Part shown: positions 1-13,254 of the stretch, piece after piece
Layout: every line of letters begins with the position of its first letter
Position numbering within the stretch: the stretch's first letter is position 1
Virus record (IMG/VR): IMGVR_UViG_2734482778_000014
Span: 1 to 13,254 of that record
DNA: 13,254 nucleotides
Strand: one strand, 5' to 3'
DNA from: a virus
Taxonomy: Duplodnaviria > Heunggongvirae > Uroviricota > Caudoviricetes
Translations under genes and position numbers: made by a program
Notes under the pieces: generated by a model
The model's input: the letters and a program-made list of their open reading frames with translations, nothing else
Told to the model about the DNA's origin: nothing
The model's database searches: none

Positions 1-318
1 ATGAAAAAGATAGCTGCTATATCATTAATTAGTATTTTTATTATGTCTGGTTGTGCTGTGCATAATGATGAGACAAGTATCGGTAAATTTGGTCTTGCAT
101 ATAAAAGTAATATTCAGCGTAAACTCGATAACCAATACTACACCGAAGCCGAAGCTTCTTTAGCCAGGGGTAGAATATCTGGTGCAGAAAATATAGTAAA
201 AAATGATGCAACTCATTTCTGTGTTACTCAGGGCAAAAAAATGCAAATAGTTGAGCTGAAGACAGAAGGTGTAGGATTACATGGTGTCGCTCGTCTGACA
301 TTCAAATGTGGAGAGTGA
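1..318 (+). CDS. small predicted outer-membrane lipoprotein (105 aa), function unknown; probable prophage moron
   Basis: ATG at window position 1; N-terminus MKKIAAISLISIFIMSGC has a basic n-region, hydrophobic h-region and lipobox-like MSG|C (Cys18); residue +2 is Ala rather than Asp, so outer-membrane sorting is expected; stop TGA 316-318; visibly AT-richer than the tail genes downstream. Confidence 0.6.
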   Translation: MKKIAAISLISIFIMSGCAVHNDETSIGKFGLAYKSNIQRKLDNQYYTEAEASLARGRISGAENIVKNDATHFCVTQGKKMQIVELKTEGVGLHGVARLTFKCGE

Positions 319-380
319 GAATATTTTTTGGTAAGCGTCAAATATGCGCGTTCTGGCTGTGCGTAGCCGGAACCTGTGGG

Positions 381-413
381 AGCACGATGCCGATAAGTGA
401 AAGGCATCGTGCT
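381..413 (+). other. perfect 11-bp stem-loop (agcacgatgcc / ggcatcgtgct, 11-nt loop) immediately upstream of a strong Shine-Dalgarno AAGGAGG (417-423)
   Basis: Read directly: 381-391 is the exact reverse complement of 403-413. No T-run follows, so it is not a classical intrinsic terminator; it could be a translational or RNA-stability element or a junction remnant. Confidence 0.4.
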
Positions 414-2294
414 ATGAAGGAGGATTCTATCGATGTGGTCAATGGAAGACGGTTACCAGAGATAGGGCTTATGCATAAAAAAATAAGCCCGTGTACCCGC
501 CCTTTGAGTACGACTATAGACCTGAATACGCTTGGAGCCGCCGAACATCTTGGTTTATGGCGTAACAGTAGCTCGGCTATAGCTTCATATGAACGCAATT
601 ATCCAGAGGAAGGCGGCTTTGCTCAGGGGATGCTTGAGATCCTCGAAGGCGGGAATTATGGAAGAACGCAACGTTATACCACTCGCCGTGGAAATATGTA
701 TGTCCGCTGCCTTGCGGCAAGCTGGGATGTATCAAATCCGCAGTGGGAACCGTGGTTAAGAGTCGGTCATCAGTCAGAGAGTCGTTATTACGAAGGTGAT
801 TTAAATGTTCTAACCGACCCCGGTATTTACAGTGTTACAGGAAAGGCAACAAACGGTCCGATGCTGGACACCGTTGGCGCGACACTACTTGGGATACTGG
901 AAGTAATCAGACGTTTTGATGGTGTGTCTGTCTGGCAGCGTTACACAACCACAGGGAAATCAGAAACCACACAGGGACGCACTTTTGAGCGCGTCTACGC
1001 CGGGAGCAAATGGACCGAATGGCGAGAAGTATATAACTCCTTTTCGTTGCCTCTGAATCTGGGCATCGGTGGCGCAGTGGCAAAACTATCCAGTCTGGAC
1101 TGGCAGACCTACGATTTTGTGCCGGGCAGTCTGATAACCGTGCGGCTTGATAACATGACCAACATTCCCGACGGTATGGACTGGGGCGTCATTGATGGCA
1201 ACCTGATAAACATCGCAGTTGGTCCGAGTGATGATTCCGGTACGGGACGCTCAATGCATGTATGGCGAAGCACTGTAAGTAAAGCCAACTACCGCTTTTT
1301 TATGGTGCGCGTTTCAGGAAATCCGGGAAGCCGCACGATTACAACAAGACGAGTACCAATCATTGACGAAGCCCAGACATGGGGCGCGAAACAGACATTC
1401 AGTGCTGGCCTTTCTGGTGAACTGTTCGGCAATGCTGCGACAGCAACAAAGCTGAAAACAGCCCGTAAAATTAATAACGTTTCGTTTGATGGAACATCAG
1501 ATATTAACCTGACGCCTGAAGATATTGGTGCATTGCCAATAACGGGAGGAACTCTTACCGGCGGTTTAACTGCTGCTGGCGAGATTATTTCCAAATCGGC
1601 GAATGGTCTTCGTATTGCCTATGGCAACTATGGATTCTTTATCCGAAACGATGGTTCAAGCACATACCTCATGTTGACCAATTCGGGCGACAGCCTGGGA
1701 ACATGGAATAGTTTAAGGCCGCTTACCATTAATAACGCCAGTGGAGCTGTTTCTATCGGTAATAGTTTAACTGTTAATGGTGATATAGGAACCAATGCTT
1801 GGGTATATGCAAATCGTTTTGCAATTAATAGCAGTACCGGAATGTGGATAAATATGCGTGACCAGAATGTTATTTTTGGACGTAATGCGGTATCCACCGA
1901 TGGTGCTCAGGCATTGTTACGTCAGGACCATGCTGATCGCAAATTTATGATTGGTGGTCTGGGGAATAAGCAATTTGGCATCTACATGATTAATAATTCA
2001 AGGACAGCCAATGGCACCGATGGTCAGGCGTACATGGATAATAACGGGAATTGGCTTTGCGGTGCGCAAGTTATTCCCGGCAATTATGGTAATTTTGACT
2101 CACGCTATGTGAGAGATGTCAGACTTGGCACACGTGTTGTTCAGACCATGCAAAAAGGCGTGATGTATGAAAAATCAGGTCATGTAATCACGGGGCTTGG
2201 TATTGTCGGTGAAGTCGATGGTGATGACCCGGCAGTATTCAGACCTGTTCAAAAATACATTAACGGAACATGGTATAACGTATCGCAGGTGTAA
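414..2294 (+). CDS. H: phage tail fiber protein with P2 gpH-like C-terminus; N-terminal part divergent, start codon ambiguous
   Basis: Long ORF in frame with the track ORF 306..2294. The C-terminal ~70 aa (NYGNFDSRYVRDVRLGTRVVQTMQKGVMYEKSGHVITGLGIVGEVDGDDPAVFRPVQKYINGTWYNVSQV) matches the conserved P2 H / Mu S / P1 S-type fiber C-terminus as I recall it; the motif GNAATATKLKTARKINNVSFDGTSDINLTPEDIGAL is typical of enterobacterial prophage tail fibers; it is followed by a tail fiber assembly gene. Possible starts: ATG 306 (no SD, overlaps lipoprotein gene), ATG 387, ATG 414, or GTG 435 (11 nt after AAGGAGG). Symbol refers to the P2 homologue by C-terminal similarity only. Confidence 0.8.
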   Translation: MKEDSIDVVNGRRLPEIGLMHKKISPCTRPLSTTIDLNTLGAAEHLGLWRNSSSAIASYERNYPEEGGFAQGMLEILEGGNYGRTQRYTTRRGNMYVRCLAASWDVSNPQWEPWLRVGHQSESRYYEGDLNVLTDPGIYSVTGKATNGPMLDTVGATLLGILEVIRRFDGVSVWQRYTTTGKSETTQGRTFERVYAGSKWTEWREVYNSFSLPLNLGIGGAVAKLSSLDWQTYDFVPGSLITVRLDNMTNIPDGMDWGVIDGNLINIAVGPSDDSGTGRSMHVWRSTVSKANYRFFMVRVSGNPGSRTITTRRVPIIDEAQTWGAKQTFSAGLSGELFGNAATATKLKTARKINNVSFDGTSDINLTPEDIGALPITGGTLTGGLTAAGEIISKSANGLRIAYGNYGFFIRNDGSSTYLMLTNSGDSLGTWNSLRPLTINNASGAVSIGNSLTVNGDIGTNAWVYANRFAINSSTGMWINMRDQNVIFGRNAVSTDGAQALLRQDHADRKFMIGGLGNKQFGIYMINNSRTANGTDGQAYMDNNGNWLCGAQVIPGNYGNFDSRYVRDVRLGTRVVQTMQKGVMYEKSGHVITGLGIVGEVDGDDPAVFRPVQKYINGTWYNVSQV

Positions 2295-2297
2295 TTT

Positions 2298-2825
2298 ATG
2301 CAACACTTAAAAAACATTATTGCGGGAAATCCAAAAACGGTTGAGCAATATAAACTGACAAAGAATTTTGATGTTATCTGGTTATGGGCCGAAGACGGAA
2401 AAAACTGGTATGAGGAAGTAAGTAATTTTCAGGAAGACACGATAAAGATTGTTTACGACGAGCATAATATTATTGTCGCCATCACCAAAGATGCCTCCAC
2501 GCTTAACCCTGAAGGTTTTAGCGTTGTCGAGGTTCCTGATATTACCGCCAACCGACGTGCTGATGACTCAGGTAAATGGATGTTTAAGGGTGGTGCCGTG
2601 ATTAAGCGGATTTATACGGCAGATGAACAGCAGCAACAGGCAGAATCACAAAAGGCCGCGTTACTTTCCGAAGCGGAAAGCGTTATTCAGCCACTGGAAC
2701 GCGCTGTCAGGCTGAATATGGCGACGGATGAGGAGCGCACACGGCTGGCTGTATGGGAACGCTACAGTGTTCTGGTCAGTCGTGTGGATCTTGCAAATCC
2801 CGAATGGCCGGAAATGCCGCAATAA
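2298..2825 (+). CDS. G: tail fiber assembly protein (P2 gpG / Tfa family), 175 aa
   Basis: ATG 2298 with AGGTG SD, 3 nt after the fiber stop; 175 aa, the same length as P2 G; sits directly downstream of the fiber gene, the conserved Tfa position. Similarity is from recalled sequence, not a search. Confidence 0.88.
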
Positions 2826-2859
2826 GTTGTATGAGCTCTGGAGTGAGCTAACGTATCGA

Positions 2860-2901
2860 TAGCACAGAGTAAAGCCTAATCTGACAGTCCGCTCTGTGCT
2901 A
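2860..2901. repeat. perfect 10-bp inverted repeat (tagcacagag ... ctctgtgcta) separated by 22 bp
   Basis: Read directly: 2860-2869 is the exact reverse complement of 2892-2901. Lies in the intergenic region between gene G and the convergent ABC ATPase gene, at the left boundary of the AT-rich cassette. Confidence 0.6.
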
Positions 2902-2959
2902 GGTGCAGACATAGCTTAGAGCAGCTTGTGTAAATCTGCAGGGACGAGCTTAAAGAAGC

Positions 2960-2986
2960 GCCGCCTTCATAGAAGGCAGCATTTTA
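2960..2986. terminator. candidate bidirectional intrinsic terminator between convergent genes
   Basis: Stem gccgccttc (2960-2968) / gaaggcagc (2972-2980), 9 bp with one C-A mismatch and a 3-nt loop, followed by ATTTT on the plus strand and by CTTCTTT on the minus strand; 4 nt from the ABC ATPase stop codon (2984-2986). Confidence 0.45.
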
Positions 2987-5344
2987 CATTTGTCTACTAT
3001 CAATACCTGAACGTGCTGCTTCCATGAAGTTGATCCTTCCTGCTGGCATACCAAATTTTTTGTATTTATAACGAAAATAGGCCGACATACGGTCTTCATG
3101 CGTTGATATAATTATCTGACGATCTCGGAATTCAGTTCGTAGTAACTCGACAAAGCCAGCTACATTAATTTCGTCCAGTGTCTGAACAGGATCATCTACG
3201 AGCAATAGAGAGTGCTTGGCGTACCGCTGATTCAAGGCAAGAGTAAATGATAGTACCAATGCTGAAAGCTGGCCCGAACTCATGGAAAAGACGGCATCAT
3301 GCTCATGCCCTGGTGTTTCATTGAAGGCGATAGAATTACCATCATTTTCTATGAAGATACCCAGCCCCTGCTGATAACTTTGCATAAGGCGACCTGAATA
3401 GATATGAAATAGAATCTCAATCTCTTTAACTATAGATTCGAGATACGATCTTTTCTCACTCTCATAAATTCTTTTGATTTTCTGTAGATGACCTTTCAGT
3501 TTATCGGCCTTTCTAATTAATATTTCAGCTTTATTATACTCCAACTCACATTCCGAGATGTATTTAGATAAAGCAATGGATTGTTGCTGCCCTAAATAAG
3601 TTTTTTTCAATTCAAGTCTTGAGGGGGTGATATATTTAACCGAGAGGGGGTCGTTATTAAACACTTCACGAAAAACTCTCTCAAAATCATCATGGATACA
3701 GCTGTCGTCAACTGGTTTAAATATTTCACGAACGCGACGCTCGAGTTCATCTATCGCGAGTTGTGTTACAGGTTCAAAATTATCGCACAGTAAGTCCTGA
3801 AATATAACCCCCCCAGCTAGTAGTTGTTTATAATAATTTTCTAACCACAGGATTTGTTCTTCTGATAAACTTGTTAGTTGGCGCTTACGCTCAATACTTT
3901 CTTTCTCTTGCACCAGATATGTCTGCAGTACAATTTCAATGGGCTCCTGCCAGTTGCGTCTGAAATTGGCTAGTGCTTGTGAGAATTGATCATTCTGTTG
4001 CTCGGCTAAATTTTCTAGAATTATACGTTGGTTTTCAATTCCTCCAAGCAGAGCATCAGCCGTTGGCCAAGGATGTCCACACGTAGGGCAAATATTTGTC
4101 AAATCGCAGTGAGATTCATGCTTCCTGAAAGCACTTACCATTTGCTCGCGTGTTTGTAGCAGCGCCGCATAGCATTCCTGAACTTTATCTGAATTAGCTA
4201 ACTGCAATTTGAGCCCGGCTACCTGTTGATGAAACTCCTCCGGCGATAGGGTTTCCGGGAGGAGAGTGACCAGTGGAGCAGTGATCACCAAACGATCTTC
4301 ATTGATAGCCTTTATTGTATCTTTAAATGCGTCACTTAGTGCTAAGGCTGATTCAAAACAAGCAACGTCATCCTGCCATTTGTTCCTTTGTTCAATAGAT
4401 TGATAATACATCAAAAACCGCTGTTGTAGCTCCTGTTTAGGGAGGAGTTTCTTTATCAATTCATTATTATATAGCTGATTTTCATATTGTTCGAAATTTT
4501 CAGTAAAACGTCGGACTCGGAATAACTCTCCATCTGCAGATAACCACTGTTCGAATTGCTGTGCATCAACCTCCACAACATCACGATCCCATGGTTGATC
4601 TGTAATTGCGATAATCCTTTCATATGCAACAGAACTATCTGCTGGTAGCATCTGCTGCTTAGCTAGGTCCCATTTATCTTTAAGTTGTTTCATTTCGGCA
4701 TATTTCTGTGGATTACACAATTTACCGATTTTGGTTGATGCCAAGTTAATATTACTAATTTTGTCCTGAATGTCTCCAATATCGAACAGATGTGCAATCT
4801 GGCTCTGTCTATCTTTTTCCTTTTGTTTTAGCAACCGAGTGTTTTCTTCTTGCTCAACATAATGAAACAATTCAAAATCACGTTGATACTGATCTCCTAG
4901 TAAGGCAGAAAGGTATGATTCTTCTTGCGAAATAGCTTCACCTCGCTCCGCGTTGAAATCGGCTAATTCATAAAGAGGAAGCCTTAAATCAGCTACGCCT
5001 TTATGTTCATCTAGAACTGCTTTGCTGGCTGCTCTCTCGAGAAAACAACTACTCCCATCAACTAAGATCTCGGCACGGATTGAAAGCCAATCATCATTTC
5101 TCGCTTGTTTGAATAACCAAGGACAGCCAGTTTTCAAGCTTCGTCGATCTATTGTAAGTTTTTCGAGTTCAATATAGCGCCGGATTTTTCCTGTCAGTAG
5201 CAGTTCTAGTGCATCAAAAAAAGATGATTTACCGAAACCATTGGGACCATCAAGAACAATGAGATATTCACTTTCAAGAGTTAACTCTAGTTTCTCAAAG
5301 ACTTTAAAATTACGTACTTCTAGGCGTTTAACAATCAATTTCAT
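2984..5344 (-). CDS. SMC/Rad50-like ABC ATPase with long coiled-coil insert (LmuB / DdmC-like, ABC-three-component family)
   Basis: Preferred start ATG 5344-5342 (MKLIVKRLEVRNFKVF..., preceded by GAGG); the track ORF begins at an upstream GTG at 5368. Walker A GPNGFGKS at nt 5225-5248; about 650 residues rich in Q/E/K/L heptad-like sequence; CPTC (CxxC) at nt 4079-4090 near the protein midpoint; C-terminal signature-like SSGQ (3269-3280), Walker B LLLVDD (3191-3208) and H-loop STHED (His codon 3098-3100). Stop TAA 2984-2986. Confidence 0.85.
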   Translation of the reverse strand: MKLIVKRLEVRNFKVFEKLELTLESEYLIVLDGPNGFGKSSFFDALELLLTGKIRRYIELEKLTIDRRSLKTGCPWLFKQARNDDWLSIRAEILVDGSSCFLERAASKAVLDEHKGVADLRLPLYELADFNAERGEAISQEESYLSALLGDQYQRDFELFHYVEQEENTRLLKQKEKDRQSQIAHLFDIGDIQDKISNINLASTKIGKLCNPQKYAEMKQLKDKWDLAKQQMLPADSSVAYERIIAITDQPWDRDVVEVDAQQFEQWLSADGELFRVRRFTENFEQYENQLYNNELIKKLLPKQELQQRFLMYYQSIEQRNKWQDDVACFESALALSDAFKDTIKAINEDRLVITAPLVTLLPETLSPEEFHQQVAGLKLQLANSDKVQECYAALLQTREQMVSAFRKHESHCDLTNICPTCGHPWPTADALLGGIENQRIILENLAEQQNDQFSQALANFRRNWQEPIEIVLQTYLVQEKESIERKRQLTSLSEEQILWLENYYKQLLAGGVIFQDLLCDNFEPVTQLAIDELERRVREIFKPVDDSCIHDDFERVFREVFNNDPLSVKYITPSRLELKKTYLGQQQSIALSKYISECELEYNKAEILIRKADKLKGHLQKIKRIYESEKRSYLESIVKEIEILFHIYSGRLMQSYQQGLGIFIENDGNSIAFNETPGHEHDAVFSMSSGQLSALVLSFTLALNQRYAKHSLLLVDDPVQTLDEINVAGFVELLRTEFRDRQIIISTHEDRMSAYFRYKYKKFGMPAGRINFMEAARSGIDSRQM

Positions 5345-6032
5345 AACCTGCCTCAGATAATTTATCACCCATGGAAATTAATAGATCTTCCGGTAATACA
5401 TCCTGTGATACAATCTGAGCAGCTAAAGAATCAATAACTGAGTCGAATGTAGTTAATAGAGCAGGGTTATCCGTGCGCTGAATTTTTTCATTAATACTTC
5501 GTTCAAGGCTAGCTAAATCAGAATTACCAAAGCTATTAACTGCTATAAAAGGCAGTTTTATCACAAGTCTGTATAGTAGGCTTTGCCATCCACCTTGTAG
5601 GTAATGAGATTTATATTCGGTAAAGGTATCAGGAGAAGTAATCAATTCGCGAAAGACTGCTGCGAGTCCTTGGGTATCAACCTGCTGGTATAAAGCTTCA
5701 AGCTCTGCGGTAGTATATGGAAGTACGTGTTTCTTGAAGAAATAACTATCTTCTTCCGCATGATGAACTCTTTTACTACAAAGCACACTTGAGCTGTCAG
5801 TGTTCCATACAATCAATAAATTAATGTTTTTCTCAAGTGCGGGATCGGATGTGGCTTTTTTACATTCATTCAACCACCCAGCTTGGATTTCAGGTGTAAT
5901 TATCGGCTCACCAAAGACTACTAACCAGAAATTTTTCTTACCCAGTGTACTGTATTCGTATAACGCCAAGTCTGTGGAATGTTTACGCGTCAGTCCTTCT
6001 GATTCCAACAATTGCTCAATTAGGTTCTGCAT
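5328..6032 (-). CDS. hypothetical protein, 234 aa; candidate middle component of an ABC-three-component / Lamassu-like system (LmuC / DdmB position)
   Basis: ATG 6032-6030; stop TAA 5328-5330; no motif I can recognise. Sandwiched between the putative effector and the ABC ATPase with 17-nt overlaps on both sides, indicating a co-translated operon. Family assignment is by position only. Confidence 0.5.
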   Translation of the reverse strand: MQNLIEQLLESEGLTRKHSTDLALYEYSTLGKKNFWLVVFGEPIITPEIQAGWLNECKKATSDPALEKNINLLIVWNTDSSSVLCSKRVHHAEEDSYFFKKHVLPYTTAELEALYQQVDTQGLAAVFRELITSPDTFTEYKSHYLQGGWQSLLYRLVIKLPFIAVNSFGNSDLASLERSINEKIQRTDNPALLTTFDSVIDSLAAQIVSQDVLPEDLLISMGDKLSEAGYEIDC

Positions 6033-7332
6033 CTTTCAAACTCTCAGGTACATTGTTTAAAGAAACCATAGCCACCTTCTTATAATTCCCGATGCGGTTT
6101 TCCCTTAGTAATTCGTGTTCAATGGTATCCACTCCCTCAGTGGCGTCGATACCTACGAGTACGTCAGAGATTGAAGGTCTGTCTATGGCGCTGGTGATAA
6201 GTACACCGCCCTCAAATAAACATTCTACATCTTCGCTAATTGCCTGTTGCATGATGTCATGACAGATACTTTCCTGATGCTCTACAGCATGGTGGATACC
6301 TGTTGGATAATAGAAAAGCCCATCATTTAGCCAAGAGAATGCAACACCAGAAACTTCATTTCGTGCAGCCTGAACTAGTTTCCAGAAAATTGTAAACATC
6401 CCAAGTCGCATTGCATCACGATCAAGTGATTGTTCCTTAAATTCATCAAGAGTTCTAAAACGTCCCTTTTTATGCGGCATCGTTGCTCTCAGGAATGACT
6501 TCATTCCATCAACATCCAACGCAGTGATAGCAGCCAGATAGTCATCTAACTTTTGACATGCTGCTTGGGAGAAGCCGTCTTGGCGATCACAAAACTCTTG
6601 GTAGTATGTGCCAATATCAATCTGCAGGCGGCTAAGGAAGAACGCTTCATTCTCAAACGGAGTATAATCGTTTGCTTCGATTACACCATACAACTCAGAA
6701 AACTCGATGAATTCGCCAGCTGCGATTGCCGTCTGATGACGCACAGACTCGTGTATCCGACTATGGGTCATAATGACTTTTGAATTTACTATGGCTTCAA
6801 GCGTGTTCTGAATATTTGCAACGAGATGAATCTTCCAGGCGGGTAGTACTGCGATATTAGAAAGTAGGCTGGTAAGTTTATTCCTAATCAATCTGTCCAC
6901 CTCACTCAGTGGGCAAAAGGATTGTGTGGCATTTCCTTCTACATCAGGTGGAATAGGGTAAGCATAAAATCTCACTGGTCCATAGTCAGCCTCAAATGTT
7001 GCCGGAACGTTCATTACTTCGCGAGCCACATGGAAATAAGCGAGCTGCACACCTCGCTCCCTCGCACTATCCCGTTGGGTAGTGATGCCATCTCTGTAGG
7101 CGGAAAAGCGCGTGTCTTTGTACGCTTTGACCTGATGCATTGACAGGCATTGCTGGTGACGAAAAATTGCGAAATCATCCTGGCTTTCTAGCTGCAGTTT
7201 CAAATCTCGGTTCGCTTCATAATCTGAGGACATCATCTTCAAACAGTGGTACAGCGCCAGCTTGCCCTGATAGACAAATCCACTCCACGTAGAGATGGCT
7301 GTGTGTGGAAAAACTTGAGGAACAACTGCCAT
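6016..7332 (-). CDS. putative nuclease effector with N-terminal PD-(D/E)xK-like motifs (Cap4/DUF4297-like; LmuA / DdmA position)
   Basis: Preferred start ATG 7332-7330 (MAVVPQVF..., upstream AAGGGA); the track ORF begins at GTG 7347. N-terminal region contains GFVYQ (nt 7267-7281), then LQLESQDDFAIF and MHQVK: Asp codons at 7174-7179 and Q-x-K at 7126-7134, a spacing and context consistent with a restriction-endonuclease-like D...(E/Q)xK core. The C-terminal ~300 aa has no recognisable motif. Stop TGA 6016-6018. Confidence 0.5.
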   Translation of the reverse strand: MAVVPQVFPHTAISTWSGFVYQGKLALYHCLKMMSSDYEANRDLKLQLESQDDFAIFRHQQCLSMHQVKAYKDTRFSAYRDGITTQRDSARERGVQLAYFHVAREVMNVPATFEADYGPVRFYAYPIPPDVEGNATQSFCPLSEVDRLIRNKLTSLLSNIAVLPAWKIHLVANIQNTLEAIVNSKVIMTHSRIHESVRHQTAIAAGEFIEFSELYGVIEANDYTPFENEAFFLSRLQIDIGTYYQEFCDRQDGFSQAACQKLDDYLAAITALDVDGMKSFLRATMPHKKGRFRTLDEFKEQSLDRDAMRLGMFTIFWKLVQAARNEVSGVAFSWLNDGLFYYPTGIHHAVEHQESICHDIMQQAISEDVECLFEGGVLITSAIDRPSISDVLVGIDATEGVDTIEHELLRENRIGNYKKVAMVSLNNVPESLKDAEPN

Positions 7333-7415
7333 GAGATCCCTTATCACTTTAGATTCACATCATTGGGACATTCTCAGCACGGAGACTCTTCCCATCCTCT
7401 AACGATATATAGCCT

Positions 7416-7444
7416 ATTGACATATAAAATACTCTTAGTATTTT
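7416..7444 (+). promoter_or_regulatory. candidate sigma70 promoter: TTGACA (7416-7421), 17-bp spacer, TATTTT (7439-7444)
   Basis: Perfect -35 hexamer and acceptable -10 with correct spacing in the AT-rich region between the cassette and FI; predicted transcription start near 7451, reading toward the terminator at 7781-7809. Confidence 0.35.
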
Positions 7445-7780
7445 CGTGGATATTGTTCTATCCCCTAGATTTACATGCTTGTTGCTTATCATATCCTTAC
7501 ACTGAATCTTCGTTGGTTTGGTCAGCATCTCTAACCAGTCCCTCACGGAGAATTACTGCAACAATACAATTGTCATAAAACCTTCCGCTTAGAAGGGAAA
7601 ATGTCAACTCAACAAAGTGGTTGGCCCACTATTGATTAATAAACAATACTAGTAATGCTTCCATCGGCTGTAAGAAAAATTGAGGACTTCCGCTCCTCGC
7701 TCAAAGCAGGCTATCAGACTTGATAGCGTTTTGGCTATGTAAATTGTCAGTTGGAAAATGAGTGAGTACAAATCAGGACA

Positions 7781-7809
7781 GGCGGGCGAATTGCCCGCCT
7801 TTTCTTTAT
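7781..7809 (+). terminator. rho-independent terminator (GGCGGGC gaatt GCCCGCC then TTTTCTTTAT)
   Basis: Perfect 7-bp GC stem with 5-nt loop followed by a T-rich tract on the plus strand; no annotated plus-strand ORF of meaningful size ends upstream of it. Confidence 0.7.
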
Positions 7810-7903
7810 CTGTTGTTTCATCCACTGACCAGCCAGGTCAAATAGCGTCTCATGCACTGTCCAACAGAAAATAGTTGCACCCATTAACCACGGAGTTAAA
7901 CGG

Positions 7904-8565
7904 ATGAGTGACTATCATCATGGCGTGCAGGTGCTGGAGATTAACGACGGCACCCGCGTCATTTCCACCGTATCCACCGCCATTGTTGGCATGGTCTGCA
8001 CGGCCAGCGATGCGGATGCGGAAACCTTCCCCCTCAATAAACCGGTGCTGATTACCAATGTGCAGAGCGCAATTGCAAAGGCCGGTAAAAAAGGCACGCT
8101 GGCGGCGTCGTTGCAGGCCATCGCTGACCAGTCAAAACCAGTCACCGTTGTCGTGCGTGTTGAAGACGGCACCGGCGACGACGAGGAAACGAAACTCGCG
8201 CAGACCGTTTCCAATATCATCGGCACCACTGACGAAAACGGTCAGTACACCGGACTGAAAGCCCTGATGACACGATGGCTGAGGCGCACATGTGGGCTAT
8301 TGATAAGCCCATCACCGCAACGCTGATTCGCGACATCGTTGACGGCATCAATGCCAAATTCCGTGAACTGAAAAGCAACGGTTATATCGTGGATGGCACA
8401 TGCTGGTTCAGTGAAGAAGCCAATGATGCGGAAACCCTCAAGGCCGGAAAACTGTATATCGACTACGACTATACCCCGGTGCCTCCTCTCGAAAACCTGA
8501 CCCTGCGCCAGCGTATTACTTCAAGATACCTGGCAAGTCTGGTCACCTCGGTTAACAGCAATTAA
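7904..8565 (+). pseudogene. FI: tail sheath protein gene FI, disrupted: frame break and apparent internal deletion of about 0.5 kb
   Basis: ATG 7904 with GGAG SD. The N-terminal ~121 codons ([54 protein letters not shown]...TGLKAL) match the P2 sheath N-terminus as recalled. At about 8265-8270 the frame changes, and the sheath C-terminus ([35 protein letters not shown]...LVTSVNSN) continues in another frame to stop 8563-8565. Total coding capacity is about 220 codons, against the roughly 390-400 aa expected for a P2-type sheath. Confidence 0.8.
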
Positions 8566-8577
8566 GGAGCCTGACCG

Positions 8578-9096
8578 ATGGCAATGCCGCGCAAACTCAA
8601 GTTAATGAACGTCTTTCTGAACGGCTACAGCTATCAGGGCGTCGCGAAGTCCGTCACGCTGCCAAAACTGACCCGTAAGCTCGAAAACTATCGCGGTGCG
8701 GGGATGAACGGCAGCGCACCGGTAGACCTCGGCCTTGATGACGATGCGCTGTCAATGGAGTGGTCGCTCGGGGGCTTCCCGGATTCGGTTATCTGGGAAC
8801 TTTACGCCGCAACCGGTGTGGATGCCGTGCCGATTCGTTTTGCAGGCTCTTACCAGCGTGACGATACCGGCGAAACGGTGGCCGTCGAAGTGGTCATGCG
8901 TGGCCGTCAGAAAGAAATCGACACCGGCGAGGGTAAACAGGGAGAAGACACCGAGTCGAAAATCTCCGTGGTCTGCACCTATTTCCGGCTGACGATGGAC
9001 GGTAAGGAGCTGGTCGAAATTGACACCATCAACATGATTGAGAAGGTGAACGGCGTCGACCGGCTGGAGCAACACCGCCGCAATATCGGCCTGTGA
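8578..9096 (+). CDS. FII: tail tube protein (P2 gpFII), 172 aa
   Basis: ATG 8578 preceded by AAGGAG (8564-8569); 172 aa, the same length as P2 FII; sequence MAMPRKLKLMNVFLNGYSYQGVAKSVTLPKL... recalled as P2-type tube; conserved position after the sheath gene. Confidence 0.92.
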   Translation: MAMPRKLKLMNVFLNGYSYQGVAKSVTLPKLTRKLENYRGAGMNGSAPVDLGLDDDALSMEWSLGGFPDSVIWELYAATGVDAVPIRFAGSYQRDDTGETVAVEVVMRGRQKEIDTGEGKQGEDTESKISVVCTYFRLTMDGKELVEIDTINMIEKVNGVDRLEQHRRNIGL

Positions 9097-9103
9097 TTTT
9101 CAT

Positions 9104-9124
9104 CCGGTCAGCCTGGCTGACCGG
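9104..9124 (+). other. stem-loop between tube gene and gene E (ccggtcagc ctg gctgaccgg)
   Basis: Read directly: 9104-9112 is the reverse complement of 9116-9124 (9-bp stem, 3-nt loop), 8 nt after the FII stop. No strong T-run follows, so it is a possible attenuator, processing or stability element rather than a full terminator. Confidence 0.35.
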
Positions 9125-9152
9125 TTAACCCTGATTCAGAAGTGAGAAAACC

Positions 9153-9428
9153 ATGAACAAAGAAAATGTGATTACCCTGGACAATCCGGTCAAGCGTGGT
9201 GAGCAGGTTATCGAACAGGTCACGCTGATGAAACCCAATGCCGGGACGCTGCGCGGTGTCAGTCTGGCAGCGGTCGCGAACTCCGAAGTCGATGCACTGA
9301 TTAAGGTGCTGCCGCGCATGACGGCACCGATGCTGACCGAGCAGGAGGTCGCCGCGCTGGAACTGCCTGACCTTGTGGCGCTGGCCGGTAAGGTGGTCGG
9401 TTTTTTGTCGCCGAACTCGGTGCAGTAA
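9153..9428 (+). CDS. E: tail assembly chaperone (P2 gpE), 91 aa
   Basis: ATG 9153; 91 aa, the same length as P2 E; conserved position between tube and tape measure genes; contains the slippery heptamer near its 3' end. Confidence 0.88.
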   Translation: MNKENVITLDNPVKRGEQVIEQVTLMKPNAGTLRGVSLAAVANSEVDALIKVLPRMTAPMLTEQEVAALELPDLVALAGKVVGFLSPNSVQ

Positions 9429-9580
9429 CGTTTCCGAAAAATCTCTCGGTCGATGACCTGATGGCGGATGTGGCAGTGATATTTCACTGGCCGCCATCAG
9501 AACTGTATCCCATGAGCCTGACCGAACTCATCACATGGCGCGAAAAGGCGCTCCGGCGAAGCGGAAACACGAATGAGTAA
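9153..9580 (+). CDS. E': tail assembly chaperone E+E' fusion made by programmed -1 ribosomal frameshift
   Basis: Slippery heptamer T TTT TTG at 9401-9407 in the correct phase of the E frame (ggT TTT TTG); after a -1 shift the frame stays open to TAA 9578-9580, overlapping the T start codon at 9573. Combined product is about 142 aa. E/E' frameshifting is established for P2 and analogous to lambda G/GT. Confidence 0.75.
9401..9407 (+). promoter_or_regulatory. -1 frameshift slippery site TTTTTTG for E/E'
   Basis: Heptamer fits the X XXY YYZ pattern in the E reading frame; the -1 frame downstream is open for about 58 codons. Confidence 0.75.
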
Positions 9581-12020
9581 CAATGTAAAATTACAGGTAT
9601 TGCTCAGGGCTGTTGACCAGGCATCCCGCCCGTTTAAATCCATCCGCACAGCGAGTAAGTCGCTGTCGGGGGATATCCGGGAAACACAACAATCACTGCG
9701 CGAGCTGAACGGTCACGCATCCCGTATTGAGGGATTTCGCAAGACCAGCGCACAGCTCGCCGTGACTGGTCAGGAACTGAAAAAAGCCAGACAGGAAGCC
9801 GCAGCTCTGGCTGTCCAGTTTAAAAATACTGAACGACCGACAAATGCACAGGCAAAGGCAATGGAAGCCGCGCGTAAAAATGCGTCTGAGTTACAGGCGA
9901 AATATAACAGCCTGAGATTGTCGGTACAGCGCCAGCGTCAGGAATTGAGTCAGGCGGGTATTAATACCCGTAATCTGGCGCATGATGAACGAGGGCTGAA
10001 AAACCGTATCAGTGAAACCACCGCACAGCTTAACCGGCAGCGTGACGCGCTGGTGCGTGTCAGTGCGCAACAGGCAAAACTTAATGCAGTAAAACAGCGT
10101 TATCAGGCCGGAAAGGAACTGGCCGGAAACATGGCCTCAGTGGGCGCTGCTGGTGTGGGGATTGCGGCGGCGGGAACGATGGCCGGAGTTAAGCTGCTGA
10201 TGCCCGGCTATGAGTTTGCGCAGAAAAACTCAGAATTGCAGGCCGTGCTGGGTGTGGCAAAAGACTCCGCCGAAATGGCCGCGCTACGCAAGCAGGCGCG
10301 CCAGCTCGGCGACAATACCGCAGCCTCGGCGGATGATGCAGCCGGTGCGCAGATTATCATTGCGAAAGCCGGTGGGGATGTTGATGCCATTCAGGCGGCA
10401 ACGCCGATCACGCTGAATATGGCGCTGGCGAACCGTCGCACGATGGAAGAAAACGCCGCTCTGCTGATGGGGATGAAATCCGCCTTTCAGCTTTCAAACG
10501 ATAAGGTCGCTCATATCGGGGATGTTCTCTCCATGACGATGAACAAAACCGCCGCCGATTTTGACGGCATGAGCGATGCGCTGACCTATGCCGCACCTGT
10601 GGCAAAAAATGCCGGTGTCAGCATTGAAGAAACCGCCGCAATGGTCGGGGCACTGCATGATGCAAAAATCACAGGCTCAATGGCGGGGACGGGAAGTCGT
10701 GCCGTGTTAAGCCGCCTGCAGGCACCGACGGGAAAAGCATGGGATGCACTCAAAGAACTTGGTGTGAAAACCTCAGACAGTAAGGGAAACACCCGGCCAA
10801 TATTTACCATTCTGAAAGAAATGCAGGCCAGTTTTGAGAAAAACCGGCTCGGTACTGCCCAGCAGGCTGAATACATGAAAACCATTTTCGGGGAGGAAGC
10901 CAGCTCAGCCGCCGCCGTGCTGATGATTGCCGCCTCAACCGGAAAGCTGGACAAACTGACTGCTGCGTTTAAAGCCTCAGACGGGAAGACCGCAGAGCTG
11001 GTAAATATCATGCAGGACAATCTCGGCGGTGACTTTAAGGAGTTTCAGTCCGCTTATGAAGCGGTGGGGACAGACCTGTTTGACCAGCAGGAAGGCGCAC
11101 TGCGTAATCTCACGCAGACGGCCACAAAGTATGTGTTAAAACTAGACGGCTGGATCAAGAAAAACAAATCACTGGCGTCAACCATCGGCCTCATTGTCGG
11201 TGGCGCACTGGCGCTTATTGGCATCATCGGTGCCATTGGTCTTGTAGCCTGGCCGGTTATCACCGGCATCAATGCCATTATCGCGGCAGTGGGCGCAATA
11301 GGGGCAATCTTCACGACGGTTGGCAGTGCCGTTATGACGGCCATCGGGGCGATTAGCTGGCCGGTTGTGGCCGTGGTGGCCGCCATTGTCGCCGGGGCGT
11401 TGCTTATCCGTAAATACTGGGAGCCTGTCAGCGCATTCTTTGGCGGTGTGGTTGAAGGGCTGAAAGCAGCATTTGCGCCGGTGGGGGAACTGTTCACGCC
11501 ACTTAAGTCGCTGTTTGACTGGCTGGGCGAAAAGTTACAGGCCGCTTGGCAGTGGTTTAAAAACCTGATTGCCCCGGTTAAAGCCACCCAGGACACCCTG
11601 AACCGTTGCCGTGACACGGGCGTCATGTTCGGGCAGGCACTGGCTGACGCGTTGATGTTGCCGCTTAATGCGTTCAACAAACTGCGCAGTGGTATTGACT
11701 GGGTACTGGAAAAACTCGGTGTTATCAACAAAGAGTCAGACACACTTGACCAGACCGCCGCCAGAACTCATGCCGCCACGTATGGCACCGGTGGTTATAT
11801 TCCGGCGACCAGCTCTTATGCAGGCTATCAGGCTTATCAGCCGGTCACGGCACCGGCTGGCCGCTCTTATGTAGACCAGAGTAAAAACGAATATCACATC
11901 AGCCTGACGGGTGGTACTGCGCCGGGGACACAGCTTGACCGCCAGTTACAGGATGCGCTCGAAAAATACGAGCGGGATAAACGTGTGCGCGCCCGTGCCA
12001 GCATGATGCATGACGGTTAA
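9573..12020 (+). CDS. T: tail tape measure protein (P2 gpT), 815 aa
   Basis: ATG 9573; 815 aa, the same length as P2 T; coiled-coil-rich N-terminal half and a long Gly/Ala/Ile-rich hydrophobic segment (around nt 11150-11420) typical of tape measure proteins; conserved position after E/E'. Confidence 0.93.
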   Translation: MSNNVKLQVLLRAVDQASRPFKSIRTASKSLSGDIRETQQSLRELNGHASRIEGFRKTSAQLAVTGQELKKARQEAAALAVQFKNTERPTNAQAKAMEAARKNASELQAKYNSLRLSVQRQRQELSQAGINTRNLAHDERGLKNRISETTAQLNRQRDALVRVSAQQAKLNAVKQRYQAGKELAGNMASVGAAGVGIAAAGTMAGVKLLMPGYEFAQKNSELQAVLGVAKDSAEMAALRKQARQLGDNTAASADDAAGAQIIIAKAGGDVDAIQAATPITLNMALANRRTMEENAALLMGMKSAFQLSNDKVAHIGDVLSMTMNKTAADFDGMSDALTYAAPVAKNAGVSIEETAAMVGALHDAKITGSMAGTGSRAVLSRLQAPTGKAWDALKELGVKTSDSKGNTRPIFTILKEMQASFEKNRLGTAQQAEYMKTIFGEEASSAAAVLMIAASTGKLDKLTAAFKASDGKTAELVNIMQDNLGGDFKEFQSAYEAVGTDLFDQQEGALRNLTQTATKYVLKLDGWIKKNKSLASTIGLIVGGALALIGIIGAIGLVAWPVITGINAIIAAVGAIGAIFTTVGSAVMTAIGAISWPVVAVVAAIVAGALLIRKYWEPVSAFFGGVVEGLKAAFAPVGELFTPLKSLFDWLGEKLQAAWQWFKNLIAPVKATQDTLNRCRDTGVMFGQALADALMLPLNAFNKLRSGIDWVLEKLGVINKESDTLDQTAARTHAATYGTGGYIPATSSYAGYQAYQPVTAPAGRSYVDQSKNEYHISLTGGTAPGTQLDRQLQDALEKYERDKRVRARASMMHDG

Positions 12021-12034
12021 GGAGGTGACGAAAA

Positions 12035-12514
12035 ATGATGCTCGCGTTAGGTATGTTTGTTTTTATGCGCCAGACGCTGCCACACCAGACCATGCAGCGT
12101 GAATCTGATTATCGCTGGCCGTCAAATTCCCGTATCGGTAAACGGGATGCCTACCAGTTTCTCGGTGTTGGCGAGGAAAACATGACGCTTGCCGGTGTGC
12201 TTTATCCTGAACTGACCGGCGGAAAGCTGACGATGACCACGCTCAGGCTGATGGCAGATGAAGGCCGGGCGTGGCCGTTGCTGGATGGCACCGGCATGAT
12301 TTACGGCATGTATGTCATCAGCAAGGTGAGTGAAACAGGGAGTATTTTCTTTGCAGACGGCACACCCCGGAAAATTGATTTTACGCTGTCGCTCACCCGC
12401 GTTGATGAATCACTGGCCGCGCTTTATGGCGATATCAGTAAACAGGCGGAGTCGCTCATCGGTAAGGCCGGCAGTATGGCGACCAGATTCACAGGTATGA
12501 CGGGGGCGGGATAA
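12035..12514 (+). CDS. U: tail protein gpU, 159 aa
   Basis: ATG 12035 preceded by AAGGAGGTGA; 159 aa, the same length as P2 U; stop TAA 12512-12514 overlaps the D start by 1 nt. Confidence 0.9.
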   Translation: MMLALGMFVFMRQTLPHQTMQRESDYRWPSNSRIGKRDAYQFLGVGEENMTLAGVLYPELTGGKLTMTTLRLMADEGRAWPLLDGTGMIYGMYVISKVSETGSIFFADGTPRKIDFTLSLTRVDESLAALYGDISKQAESLIGKAGSMATRFTGMTGAG

Positions 12515-13254
12515 TGCTGGATGCGCTGACATTTGATGCAGGCAGTACGCTGACGCCGGATTATATGCTGATGCTCGACAGCAGGGATATTACCGGCAAT
12601 ATCAGCGACCGTCTGATGAGCATGACCCTGACGGATAACCGGGGCTTTGAGGCTGACCAGCTTGATATTGAACTGAACGATGCCGACGGGCAGGTCGGGC
12701 TGCCGGTTCGTGGCGCTGTCCTGACGGTGTATATCGGCTGGAAAGGTTTTGCCCTGGTATGCAAAGGAAAATTTACCGTTGATGAGGTTGAACACCGGGG
12801 CGCACCGGATGTGGTCACCATCCGCGCCCGGAGTGCAGATTTTCGCGGGACGCTCAATTCCCGCCGTGAAGGCTCCTGGCATGACACCACGCTCGGTGCG
12901 ATTGTTGAGGCGATAGCCTCCCGTAACAGGCTGGAAGCCAGTGTCGCTCCGTCACTGGCCGGAATTAAAATCCCGCACATCGACCAGTCGCAGGAGTCTG
13001 ATGCAAAATTCCTGACCCGCCTTGCTGAACGCAACGGCGGTGAGGTGTCGGTAAAAATGGGAAAACTGTTGTTTCTCAATGCGGGGCAGGGGGTGACGGC
13101 CAGCGGTAAAAAAATCCCGCAGATTACCATCACCCGCAGCGATGGCGACCGTCATCATTTTGCGATTGCTGACCGCGGAGCCTACACAGGTGTAACGGCA
13201 AAGTGGTTACACACCAAAGACCCGAAGCCGCAAAAGCTGCGTATTACCGTGAAG
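12514..13254 (+). CDS. D: tail protein gpD (late control / tail formation), 5' portion only; runs off window end
   Basis: ATG 12514 in a TAATG overlap with the U stop; frame open for 247 codons to the end of the window (MLDALTFDAGSTLTPDYMLMLDSRDITGNISDRLMSMTLTDNRGFEADQLDIELNDADGQ...). Not in the ORF track because no stop codon lies within the window. Confidence 0.88.
   Translation, partial: MLDALTFDAGSTLTPDYMLMLDSRDITGNISDRLMSMTLTDNRGFEADQLDIELNDADGQVGLPVRGAVLTVYIGWKGFALVCKGKFTVDEVEHRGAPDVVTIRARSADFRGTLNSRREGSWHDTTLGAIVEAIASRNRLEASVAPSLAGIKIPHIDQSQESDAKFLTRLAERNGGEVSVKMGKLLFLNAGQGVTASGKKIPQITITRSDGDRHHFAIADRGAYTGVTAKWLHTKDPKPQKLRITVK

Follow-up and report, generated by a model that had tools for sequence, protein, structure and literature searches.

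The interval between genes G and FI in the late region of P2-like phages has been documented both as "moron position 2" (PMC3573123) and as the Z/fun hotspot (PMC13586616). It is in this slot that prophage phi-b0847 of Escherichia coli CFT073 carries neaT, a single virulence-linked acyltransferase gene of low G+C and deviant codon usage, placed in opposite orientation to the tail genes and with homologues reported to be un-ameliorated across hosts (PMC3573123). In P2 itself (Z/fun) and in the variable "Z-region" of P2-like coliphages (AJ512683 and related), identical flanks and annotated repeat borders enclose phage-specific cargo. AT-rich defence cargo in a P2-like remnant is also known from E. 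coli BL21, where the Retron Eco1 locus has a low G+C compared to its neighbours and is bound and silenced by H-NS (bioRxiv 10.64898/2026.09.05.749240). Here we describe a stretch of 13,254 nucleotides (the window; positions 1 to 13,254 of the IMG/VR virus record IMGVR_UViG_2734482778_000014) in which the G-FI slot is occupied by an AT-rich, minus-strand operon of three genes, lmuA, lmuC and lmuB. We consider it very probable that this low-G+C tract is a horizontally exchanged cassette of the Lamassu family in the Z/fun slot of a P2-like prophage, and that its AT-richness is a trait of the cassette lineage. The locus resembles neaT in position, orientation and composition, although instead of a single gene it has a predicted three-gene defence operon of 4.4 kb within a degraded remnant. 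The flanks and repeat borders are those of the Z-region; however, the cargo differs, and a search of phage records and of 5,426 complete E. coli genomes turned up no long Lamassu at this slot. From the BL21 locus it differs in cargo and strain, and H-NS binding is in our case only a prediction.

Evidence that the tract is exchangeable cargo came from the comparison with P2-like phages and prophages (hereafter siblings) over the following features of the hotspot:

2298-2825, plus strand: gene G, the left anchor of the hotspot, for tail fibre assembly (Pfam Caudo_TAP, E 2.6e-35) and homologous to G in the sibling P2-like phages
2826-2912: P2-conserved non-coding flank after G, in which sibling homology ends (2896-2912)
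2913-7685, minus strand: variable cargo segment, 4,773 nt, 41.0% G+C, with no sibling-phage homology
7720-7903, plus strand: P2-conserved intergenic region upstream of FI, 93-97% identical in siblings
7904-8565, plus strand: pseudogene of FI (tail sheath), with Pfam sheath domains in two open reading frames (ORFs) of different frames; right anchor of the hotspot

Siblings with 91-96% identical flanks hold unrelated inserts at exactly this position. In their G-FI gap we found Shedu, DUF5677, DUF3800, HNH, S1 peptidase, AbiGi/M48 and ParA-like genes, the Z/fun of P2 and others. In five siblings, whose inserts are unrelated, the homology is lost at 2896-2912 and regained at 7686-7697 (7775 in one of them, L003), so that the variable unit is 2913-7685. 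The original prediction had been given for the interval 2826-7903, which is the entire gap between G and FI. It was right about the strands, since all three cassette genes are on the minus strand and H, G, FI, FII, E, T and U on the plus strand, but the opposite strand, which it had called consistent with acquisition by recombination, is not diagnostic, sibling cargo being found in both orientations. Using 2826-7903 as a query, 1,013 E. coli genomes gave partial matches, nearly all of them restricted to the flanks (ca. 6% of the query), and none of the phage records searched contained the cassette. An independent metagenome contig (L009) carries H, G, the cassette and FI with 99.88% identity over 2006-8020, indicating that the arrangement is natural. 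The P2-conserved region before FI also contains a terminator-like hairpin on the plus strand (7780-7800; nine pairs, seven of them G-C, and a T tail), which would insulate the FI operon from plus-strand cargo transcription or from read-through of G.

The second line of evidence is the presence of the same three-gene cassette, with 76-90% nucleotide identity, in non-phage islands of E. coli, Edaphovirga, Serratia, Morganella and Aeromonas. Relatives were present in only three of the 5,426 complete E. coli genomes, with ca. 80% identity. One of them, that of strain PapM-32-1, for which the context was retrieved, lies in an island integrated at ssrA, beside an integrase and an Eco57I-type enzyme, and not in a P2 prophage; for the other two, the annotated features beneath the matches name no phage genes. 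One further copy was located in an ssrA island together with Hachiman, and that of Edaphovirga cremea sits among MoxR/VWA-type genes. No tail genes were found near any of the loci tested. The E. cremea locus is 90.5% identical over 2894-7703, i.e., the whole cargo plus the inner parts of both border repeats (see below). We considered that this locus might be another P2 remnant and rejected the idea, as it has neither tail-gene matches nor similarity in the flanks. In a scan of viral contigs only distant relatives of LmuA appeared (27-38% identity). That the tract is foreign cargo gained at a recombination hotspot, as originally proposed, is therefore supported by evidence independent of composition, the unrelated inserts of the siblings and the occurrence of the cassette in non-phage islands. 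In the comparison with the island copies of E. coli and Morganella (L002 and L016), the synonymous divergence (dS) was ca. 0.5 for lmuA and 1.3-2.1 for lmuC and lmuB, an unevenness that suggests recombination between the effector and sensor modules.

The compositional contrast itself could be confirmed with a computed profile, although it turned out smaller than had been claimed. The G+C content is 41.3% over 2826-7903 and 41.1% over the cassette coding block (2984-7347), against 55.3% for the downstream tail genes (7904-13254) and 55.1% for the tape measure gene, so that the true difference is of some 14 points and not the 20-40 implied by spot counts. Those counts were inside the real spread of 60-base lines, which for 3400-4100 goes from 27 to 47% with a mean of 37%. 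The 67% quoted for the tape measure gene, where lines range from 42 to 72% with a mean of 55%, is an upper-tail line and not a typical one. The mean G+C of the E. coli genome is ca. 50.8%; a 31-kb sample of the host gave 52.0%, well above the 41% of the cassette, and the P2 backbone 57%, and neither the host sample nor the whole P2 genome contains a single 4.4-kb segment below 45%. A three-segment maximum-likelihood fit put the change points at 2980 and 7920. The shift is indeed sharp at the right edge, with a log-likelihood gain (dLL) of 104.7 for this step versus a maximum of 11.4 in 300 block shuffles; the step falls at ca. 7920 and not at 7686 because 7686-7903 has 46.3% G+C. At the left, the decrease is stepwise and begins inside H: the best single change point on that side is at ca. 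1444 and not at the border between G and the cassette, close to position 1534, where sibling-phage homology in H stops. The C-terminal part of H (1535-2069) falls to 44% G+C and, at the nucleotide level, matched none of the sibling P2-like phages compared; it is probably a receptor-binding module that has been exchanged separately, and it blurs the left edge of the shift. This weighs against our reading in that composition would not by itself delimit the cargo, the C-terminal part of H and G being already AT-shifted (the H and G genes have 46-47% G+C, and 0.43-0.46 at third codon positions, GC3).

Third-position G+C, codon usage and tetranucleotides each set the cassette apart from the phage backbone and from the E. 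coli host. GC3 ranges from 0.31 to 0.42 among the cassette genes, against 0.59-0.72 for the tail genes (chi-square 201, p 1e-45), with pooled values of 0.36 for the cassette, 0.62 for the tail genes and 0.60 for the host. The relative synonymous codon usage (RSCU) of the tail genes follows that of the host gene sample (correlation 0.86), while that of the cassette does not (-0.05). The tetranucleotide correlation of the cassette is 0.00 with the tail genes and 0.92 with its island homologue; the tail genes correlate with the P2 backbone at 0.92. These figures bear on the idea that the shift simply reflects amino acid composition, i.e., a coiled coil rich in Lys, Glu, Ile and Asn, or local regulatory needs of native phage genes. 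LmuB is a long coiled-coil protein and the G+C at second codon positions (GC2) of the cassette genes is low (0.31-0.37), as would be expected in that case; however, the biggest difference is found at synonymous sites and the codon usage is uncorrelated with that of the host. Moreover, the siblings have unrelated DNA at this position, a presence/absence polymorphism that already refutes the idea, and elsewhere the cassette occurs without any phage genes. We regard such an explanation as extremely unlikely.

A horizontally exchanged origin leaves the question of what the low G+C means. We have carried out a survey of the window and 12 relative loci, ranging from 90% nucleotide identity to 36% protein identity. 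In all 13 loci the cassette has between 30 and 43% G+C, while the neighbouring DNA varies between 40 and 60%, and there is no correlation between the two (Spearman rho 0.00). In the 12 relatives the cassette lies 4-23 points under the neighbouring DNA, including Aeromonas and Pseudomonas, in which the neighbours reach 56-60%. The copies have diverged to dS values of 0.5-2.1, with synonymous sites saturated in some of the comparisons, indicating that third positions have been turned over and yet have stayed AT-rich. AT-richness is thus a stable trait of the cassette lineage in every host examined and does not point to any single donor. A recent transfer from a low-G+C donor, with the cassette not yet drifted to E. 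coli composition, would fit the 10-14 points that separate the cassette from host and phage, as well as its absence from nearly all complete E. coli genomes. Nevertheless, we find it unlikely: the same deficit recurs at the other 12 loci irrespective of host G+C, it has endured through the synonymous divergence just mentioned, and no candidate donor of ca. 40% G+C emerged. Besides, the T and D segments of the prophage are 100% identical to those of a P2 remnant in E. coli DSM 103246, which argues that the prophage itself is not very recent. Since the lineage keeps its own composition across hosts, the shift is not a sign that the cassette was recently imported from any one low-G+C donor. The un-ameliorated homologues published for neaT, the cargo of this slot in phi-b0847, show the same pattern. 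In E. coli such an AT-rich cassette would be a likely target of H-NS-type silencing. By analogy with Retron Eco1 and with the Lamassu locus of ECOR28, which is de-repressed by hns deletion (bioRxiv 10.64898/2026.09.05.749240), silencing of the locus described here is a reasonable prediction.

The cassette consists of three overlapping minus-strand genes in the order A-C-B, lmuC overlapping each of its neighbours by 17 nt, together with conserved non-coding DNA at both ends:

2959-2981, minus strand: terminator-like hairpin right after the lmuB stop (found by consensus scan; 10-pair stem with 6 G-C pairs and a T-rich tail)
2984-5344, minus strand: lmuB, SMC/Rad50-like ATPase, 786 amino acids from the ATG at 5344 (the program-called ORF starts at a GTG at 5368 and has 794 amino acids)
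5328-6032, minus strand: lmuC, middle component, 234 amino acids (Pfam MComp1, ABC-3C middle component 1, 40.2 bits, cut-off 27.3)
6016-7332, minus strand: lmuA, effector, 438 amino acids from the ATG at 7332, with an N-terminal Cap4-type PD-(D/E)xK nuclease and a C-terminal ABC-3C CTD1 domain
7333-7525, minus strand: conserved non-coding leader and putative promoter region, aligning with the upstream regions of cassette copies elsewhere

LmuB matched the PADLOC LmuB profile over residues 9-777 (E 1.1e-61) and Pfam SMC_N (1.3e-18). In the numbering of the 794-residue ORF, it has a Walker A motif GPNGFGKS at 41, an SSGQ signature at 697, a Walker B LLLVDD at 721 and exactly one CxxC, the central CPTC at residue 427; in the independent contig L009 the gene is called with 786 residues. 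For LmuA, Pfam ABC-3C CTD1 scored 93 bits and PADLOC LmuA gave 9e-18, and residues D53 and Q67-V68-K69 are invariant across 31 homologues. LmuC matched no PADLOC or NCBIfam model, and there is no NCBIfam model for LmuA either. All the cassette genes are full length, with dN/dS values of 0.07-0.20 against homologues, and they can be taken as intact and under purifying selection. The hairpin after lmuB is part of the cassette, lying inside the stretch common to the island copies (2951-7502), and at the other end some 190 nt 5' of lmuA are conserved among the copies. A 63-residue ORF upstream of lmuA (7355-7546) was considered as a fourth gene and rejected, as indels break it in the homologues. 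A search with Rfam gave no RNA family anywhere in the window.

Lamassu systems are divided into short and long types, the long ones being marked by an LmuB of ca. 800 residues with a Walker A Gx4GK[ST], a Walker B hhhhDD and a single zinc hook (Haudiquet et al., PMC12663957). The size and Walker motifs of LmuB, its single CxxC, the position of lmuC between lmuA and lmuB, and an LmuA that combines an effector with CTD1 all agree with this type. Judged by these features, the operon belongs to the "long" Lamassu (ABC-3C) systems, and its effector is a nuclease of the Cap4 type. The closest characterized systems are Vibrio cholerae Lamassu Vc-Cap4 (DdmABC) and Salmonella LmuACB (PMC12663957), which likewise combine an SMC-like ATPase and a small middle protein with a Cap4-type nuclease that carries a C-terminal domain. 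We have compared the operon with the solved short Lamassu structures (PDB 9nxx, 9hr5, 9hqx and 9ux8). The catalytic lysine of the QxK motif is K69 here and K57 in V. cholerae, and the Walker A lysine K39 (in the 786-residue numbering) and K40, respectively. In contrast to the short systems, LmuB has 786 residues versus ca. 600 and its Walker B is hhhhDD; the single CxxC of a zinc hook has no counterpart in the V. cholerae protein. LmuA, with 438 residues, is longer than the solved chains (304-385) and has no sequence-level match to any of them. PDB sequence searches with LmuA, LmuC and a profile of LmuA found no Lamassu chain, and those with LmuB gave weak matches to Rad50/SMC heads, so that a fold comparison was needed for LmuA; its predicted model matches Cap4 and solved LmuA chains.

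By its membership in the family, the operon would be a Lamassu defence system, a role that is supported by its domain content, catalytic motifs, intact and constrained genes, and defence-island neighbours. In the sequestration-release mechanism given by the solved short systems (PMC12663957), and by analogy with them, an LmuB dimer together with LmuC would hold monomeric LmuA inactive. When a phage or plasmid invades, LmuB would sense its DNA ends or replication intermediates and free LmuA, which would oligomerize and, through its Cap4-type nuclease, degrade DNA so that the infection is aborted. As it is transcribed against the late tail operons, the cassette would be expressible in the lysogen independently of the phage late genes. 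Several points weigh against this picture. The mechanism is transferred from short systems, and as PMC12663957 reports no test of a long Lamassu that has a Cap4 effector, its details may differ here. The Pfam Cap4_nuclease match of LmuA (25.7 bits) is 0.5 bit under the cut-off of 26.2, and the Foldseek E-values of its model are weak (0.03). A consensus sigma-70 scan of the minus strand 5' of lmuA gave no site, so that a promoter function of 7333-7525 is only inferred. The leader at ca. 7395-7405 is also without 8 nt that are kept in the closest homologues (...tatat--------atcg... vs ...tatatactt-aaaatcg...), a deletion that might affect lmu expression.

A different role is also conceivable, in which the operon is not primarily anti-phage but a selfish addiction or stabilization module, or a relic of DNA repair related to SbcCD/Rad50. 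It would explain how the cassette survived in a decaying prophage, as the sole intact non-structural unit of a remnant in which H is without its 5' part and FI is short of 529 nt; Lamassu has been reported as SbcCD-derived (PMC12663957), and no experiment exists for the long Lamassu-Cap4 subtype. However, the family profiles, the neighbours (Hachiman, restriction-modification and integrases) and the hotspot all fit defence, the validated Lamassu systems are anti-phage or anti-plasmid, and the operon has a Cap4-type effector and no Mre11-like nuclease. We therefore hold this alternative to be quite improbable, and defence remains the predicted function.

As to how the cargo is exchanged, the comparison of sibling junctions revealed that it is bracketed by imperfect inverted repeats, with the consensus ...CTGTGCCATGAGCGGACAT / cargo / ATGTCCGCTCTTCGCTCA..., the counterparts of the "left/right inverted repeat" in the annotation of AJ512683:

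2880-2912: left border repeat, of which the last 19 bases (2894-2912) match the tip of an IS1182-family terminal repeat, facing the cargo
7686-7719: right border repeat, of which the first 19 bases match the tip of an IS1182-family terminal repeat, facing the cargo

The link to this family of insertion sequences (IS) comes from the Edaphovirga cassette, which has significant 35-nt terminal inverted repeats (score 34 versus 10.8 +/- 2.0 in shuffles). Scanning metagenome contigs with this repeat motif yielded at least 120 loci (L030-L149), with a consensus of ca. 33 nt, GTTTTYACACAGYCTGGGCCAnnAGCGGACAT, that includes conserved bases outside the query pattern. The copies form inverted pairs of two kinds, either ca. 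1.7 kb apart or ca. 150 nt apart, the latter being miniature inverted-repeat transposable elements (MITEs). The two ca. 1.7-kb pairs that were checked (L102 and L091) enclose ORFs of IS1182-type transposases (NF033551, E 3.5e-139 in L102). In view of these transposase-bearing pairs, the possibilities that the motif is the 5' end of a small RNA or a tiny ORF (MSA.GPGCVK...) were rejected in favour of IS ends; with Rfam, no RNA family was identified at the motif in 14 loci. In Edaphovirga, the cassette lies directly between a genuine IS1182 copy and a MITE of ca. 190 bp that belongs to this family (L024, 9450-9640 and 14421-14456), and the homology with the window stops exactly within the repeat tips.

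In the window, a first search for flanking inverted repeats by local alignment scored 20, not significantly above shuffles (17.9 +/- 2.3), and a general repeat search likewise did not detect the border repeats. They became convincing only when the sibling junctions were compared and a position-weight matrix was derived independently, with the outermost 19 bases of metagenome IS copies as its sole input. In the window, the two highest scores of this matrix fell precisely on the cargo borders, with 15.8 bits for the minus-strand site at 7686 and 11.7 bits for the plus-strand site at 2894; the site after these scored 4.2, and shuffles averaged 7.1 +/- 3.2. The best sites were at the cargo borders also in four of the five siblings, with up to 24 bits. 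From these data, exchange of the cargo appears to occur precisely at the two short inverted border repeats. The cargo is not an IS1182 transposon, as the tips face it, so that it is formally "outside" both ends, and no transposase was found in the window. The most economical reading would be that exchange points with IS-flanked cassettes located elsewhere are provided by fossil ends of IS or MITEs within the P2 backbone, either by short homology or by transposase action on abutted ends. That such fossil IS1182-family ends direct the turnover of Z/fun cargo, instead of random illegitimate recombination, is a tentative proposal, which we advance with some doubt. In the literature we found no paper linking IS1182 to the Z/fun hotspot (the 2004 study of the Z-region was not covered). 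The border repeats are partly palindromic themselves, the P2-conserved flank after G having its own hairpin at 2862-2900 (AGCACAGAG ... CTCTGTGCT) and the left border of P2-EC58 a perfect 13-bp palindrome, TGACAGTCCGCTC-N8-GAGCGGACTGTCA.

The five sibling cargos compared had each between 32 and 41% G+C, versus 56% in their tail genes. As for the element that carries the Lamassu cassette, positions 1-500 of the window are E. coli chromosome at yegR (99.8% identity), and from 494 on the sequence is the late region of a P2-like phage (Peduovirus), with the gene order of P2, H-G-[cargo]-FI-FII-E-T-U-D, although only the start of D is included. H is without its 5' part, truncated at a microhomology junction (ca. 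494-500) that joins yegR to the middle of the gene. This junction was absent from all 5,426 complete E. coli genomes searched, and in the one strain examined, E. coli DSM 103246, a fragment of gene I stands in its place. FI has a 529-nt internal, frameshifting deletion at 8269 relative to all sibling phages (mapped against L003-L006), so the prophage cannot make a tail; this deletion junction was found in none of the best-matching complete E. coli genomes, all of which carry an intact FI. The T and U/D segments (9892-10400 and 12394-13237) are 100.000% identical to the short P2 remnant beside yegR/ogrK in DSM 103246, which for this reason looks like a further-deleted derivative of the element in the window. 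The prophage is defective and decaying, and the cassette is its intact part.

AT-rich morons on the opposite strand at the G-FI slot of P2-like phages, and the AT bias of defence genes, are already documented, and as a compositional finding the present locus adds little to a known phenomenon. Its interest lies elsewhere. By its sequence features, the operon is a long-type Lamassu that has a Cap4 effector and occurs naturally in E. coli; in PMC12663957, experimental validation of a long Lamassu is limited to a Bacillus system with hydrolase-protease effectors. That the cassette appears intact and under purifying selection within an otherwise decaying prophage suggests that the defence cargo is what selection retains. 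The stability of its low G+C across hosts of 40-60% cautions against reading compositional shifts as donor fingerprints or as signs of recent arrival. Finally, the match of the borders to IS1182-family ends provides a testable handle on cargo exchange at phage hotspots and is the one lead worth following. If it proves true, dispersed IS and MITE ends would be portable exchange sites that shuttle AT-rich defence cassettes between chromosomal islands and phages.

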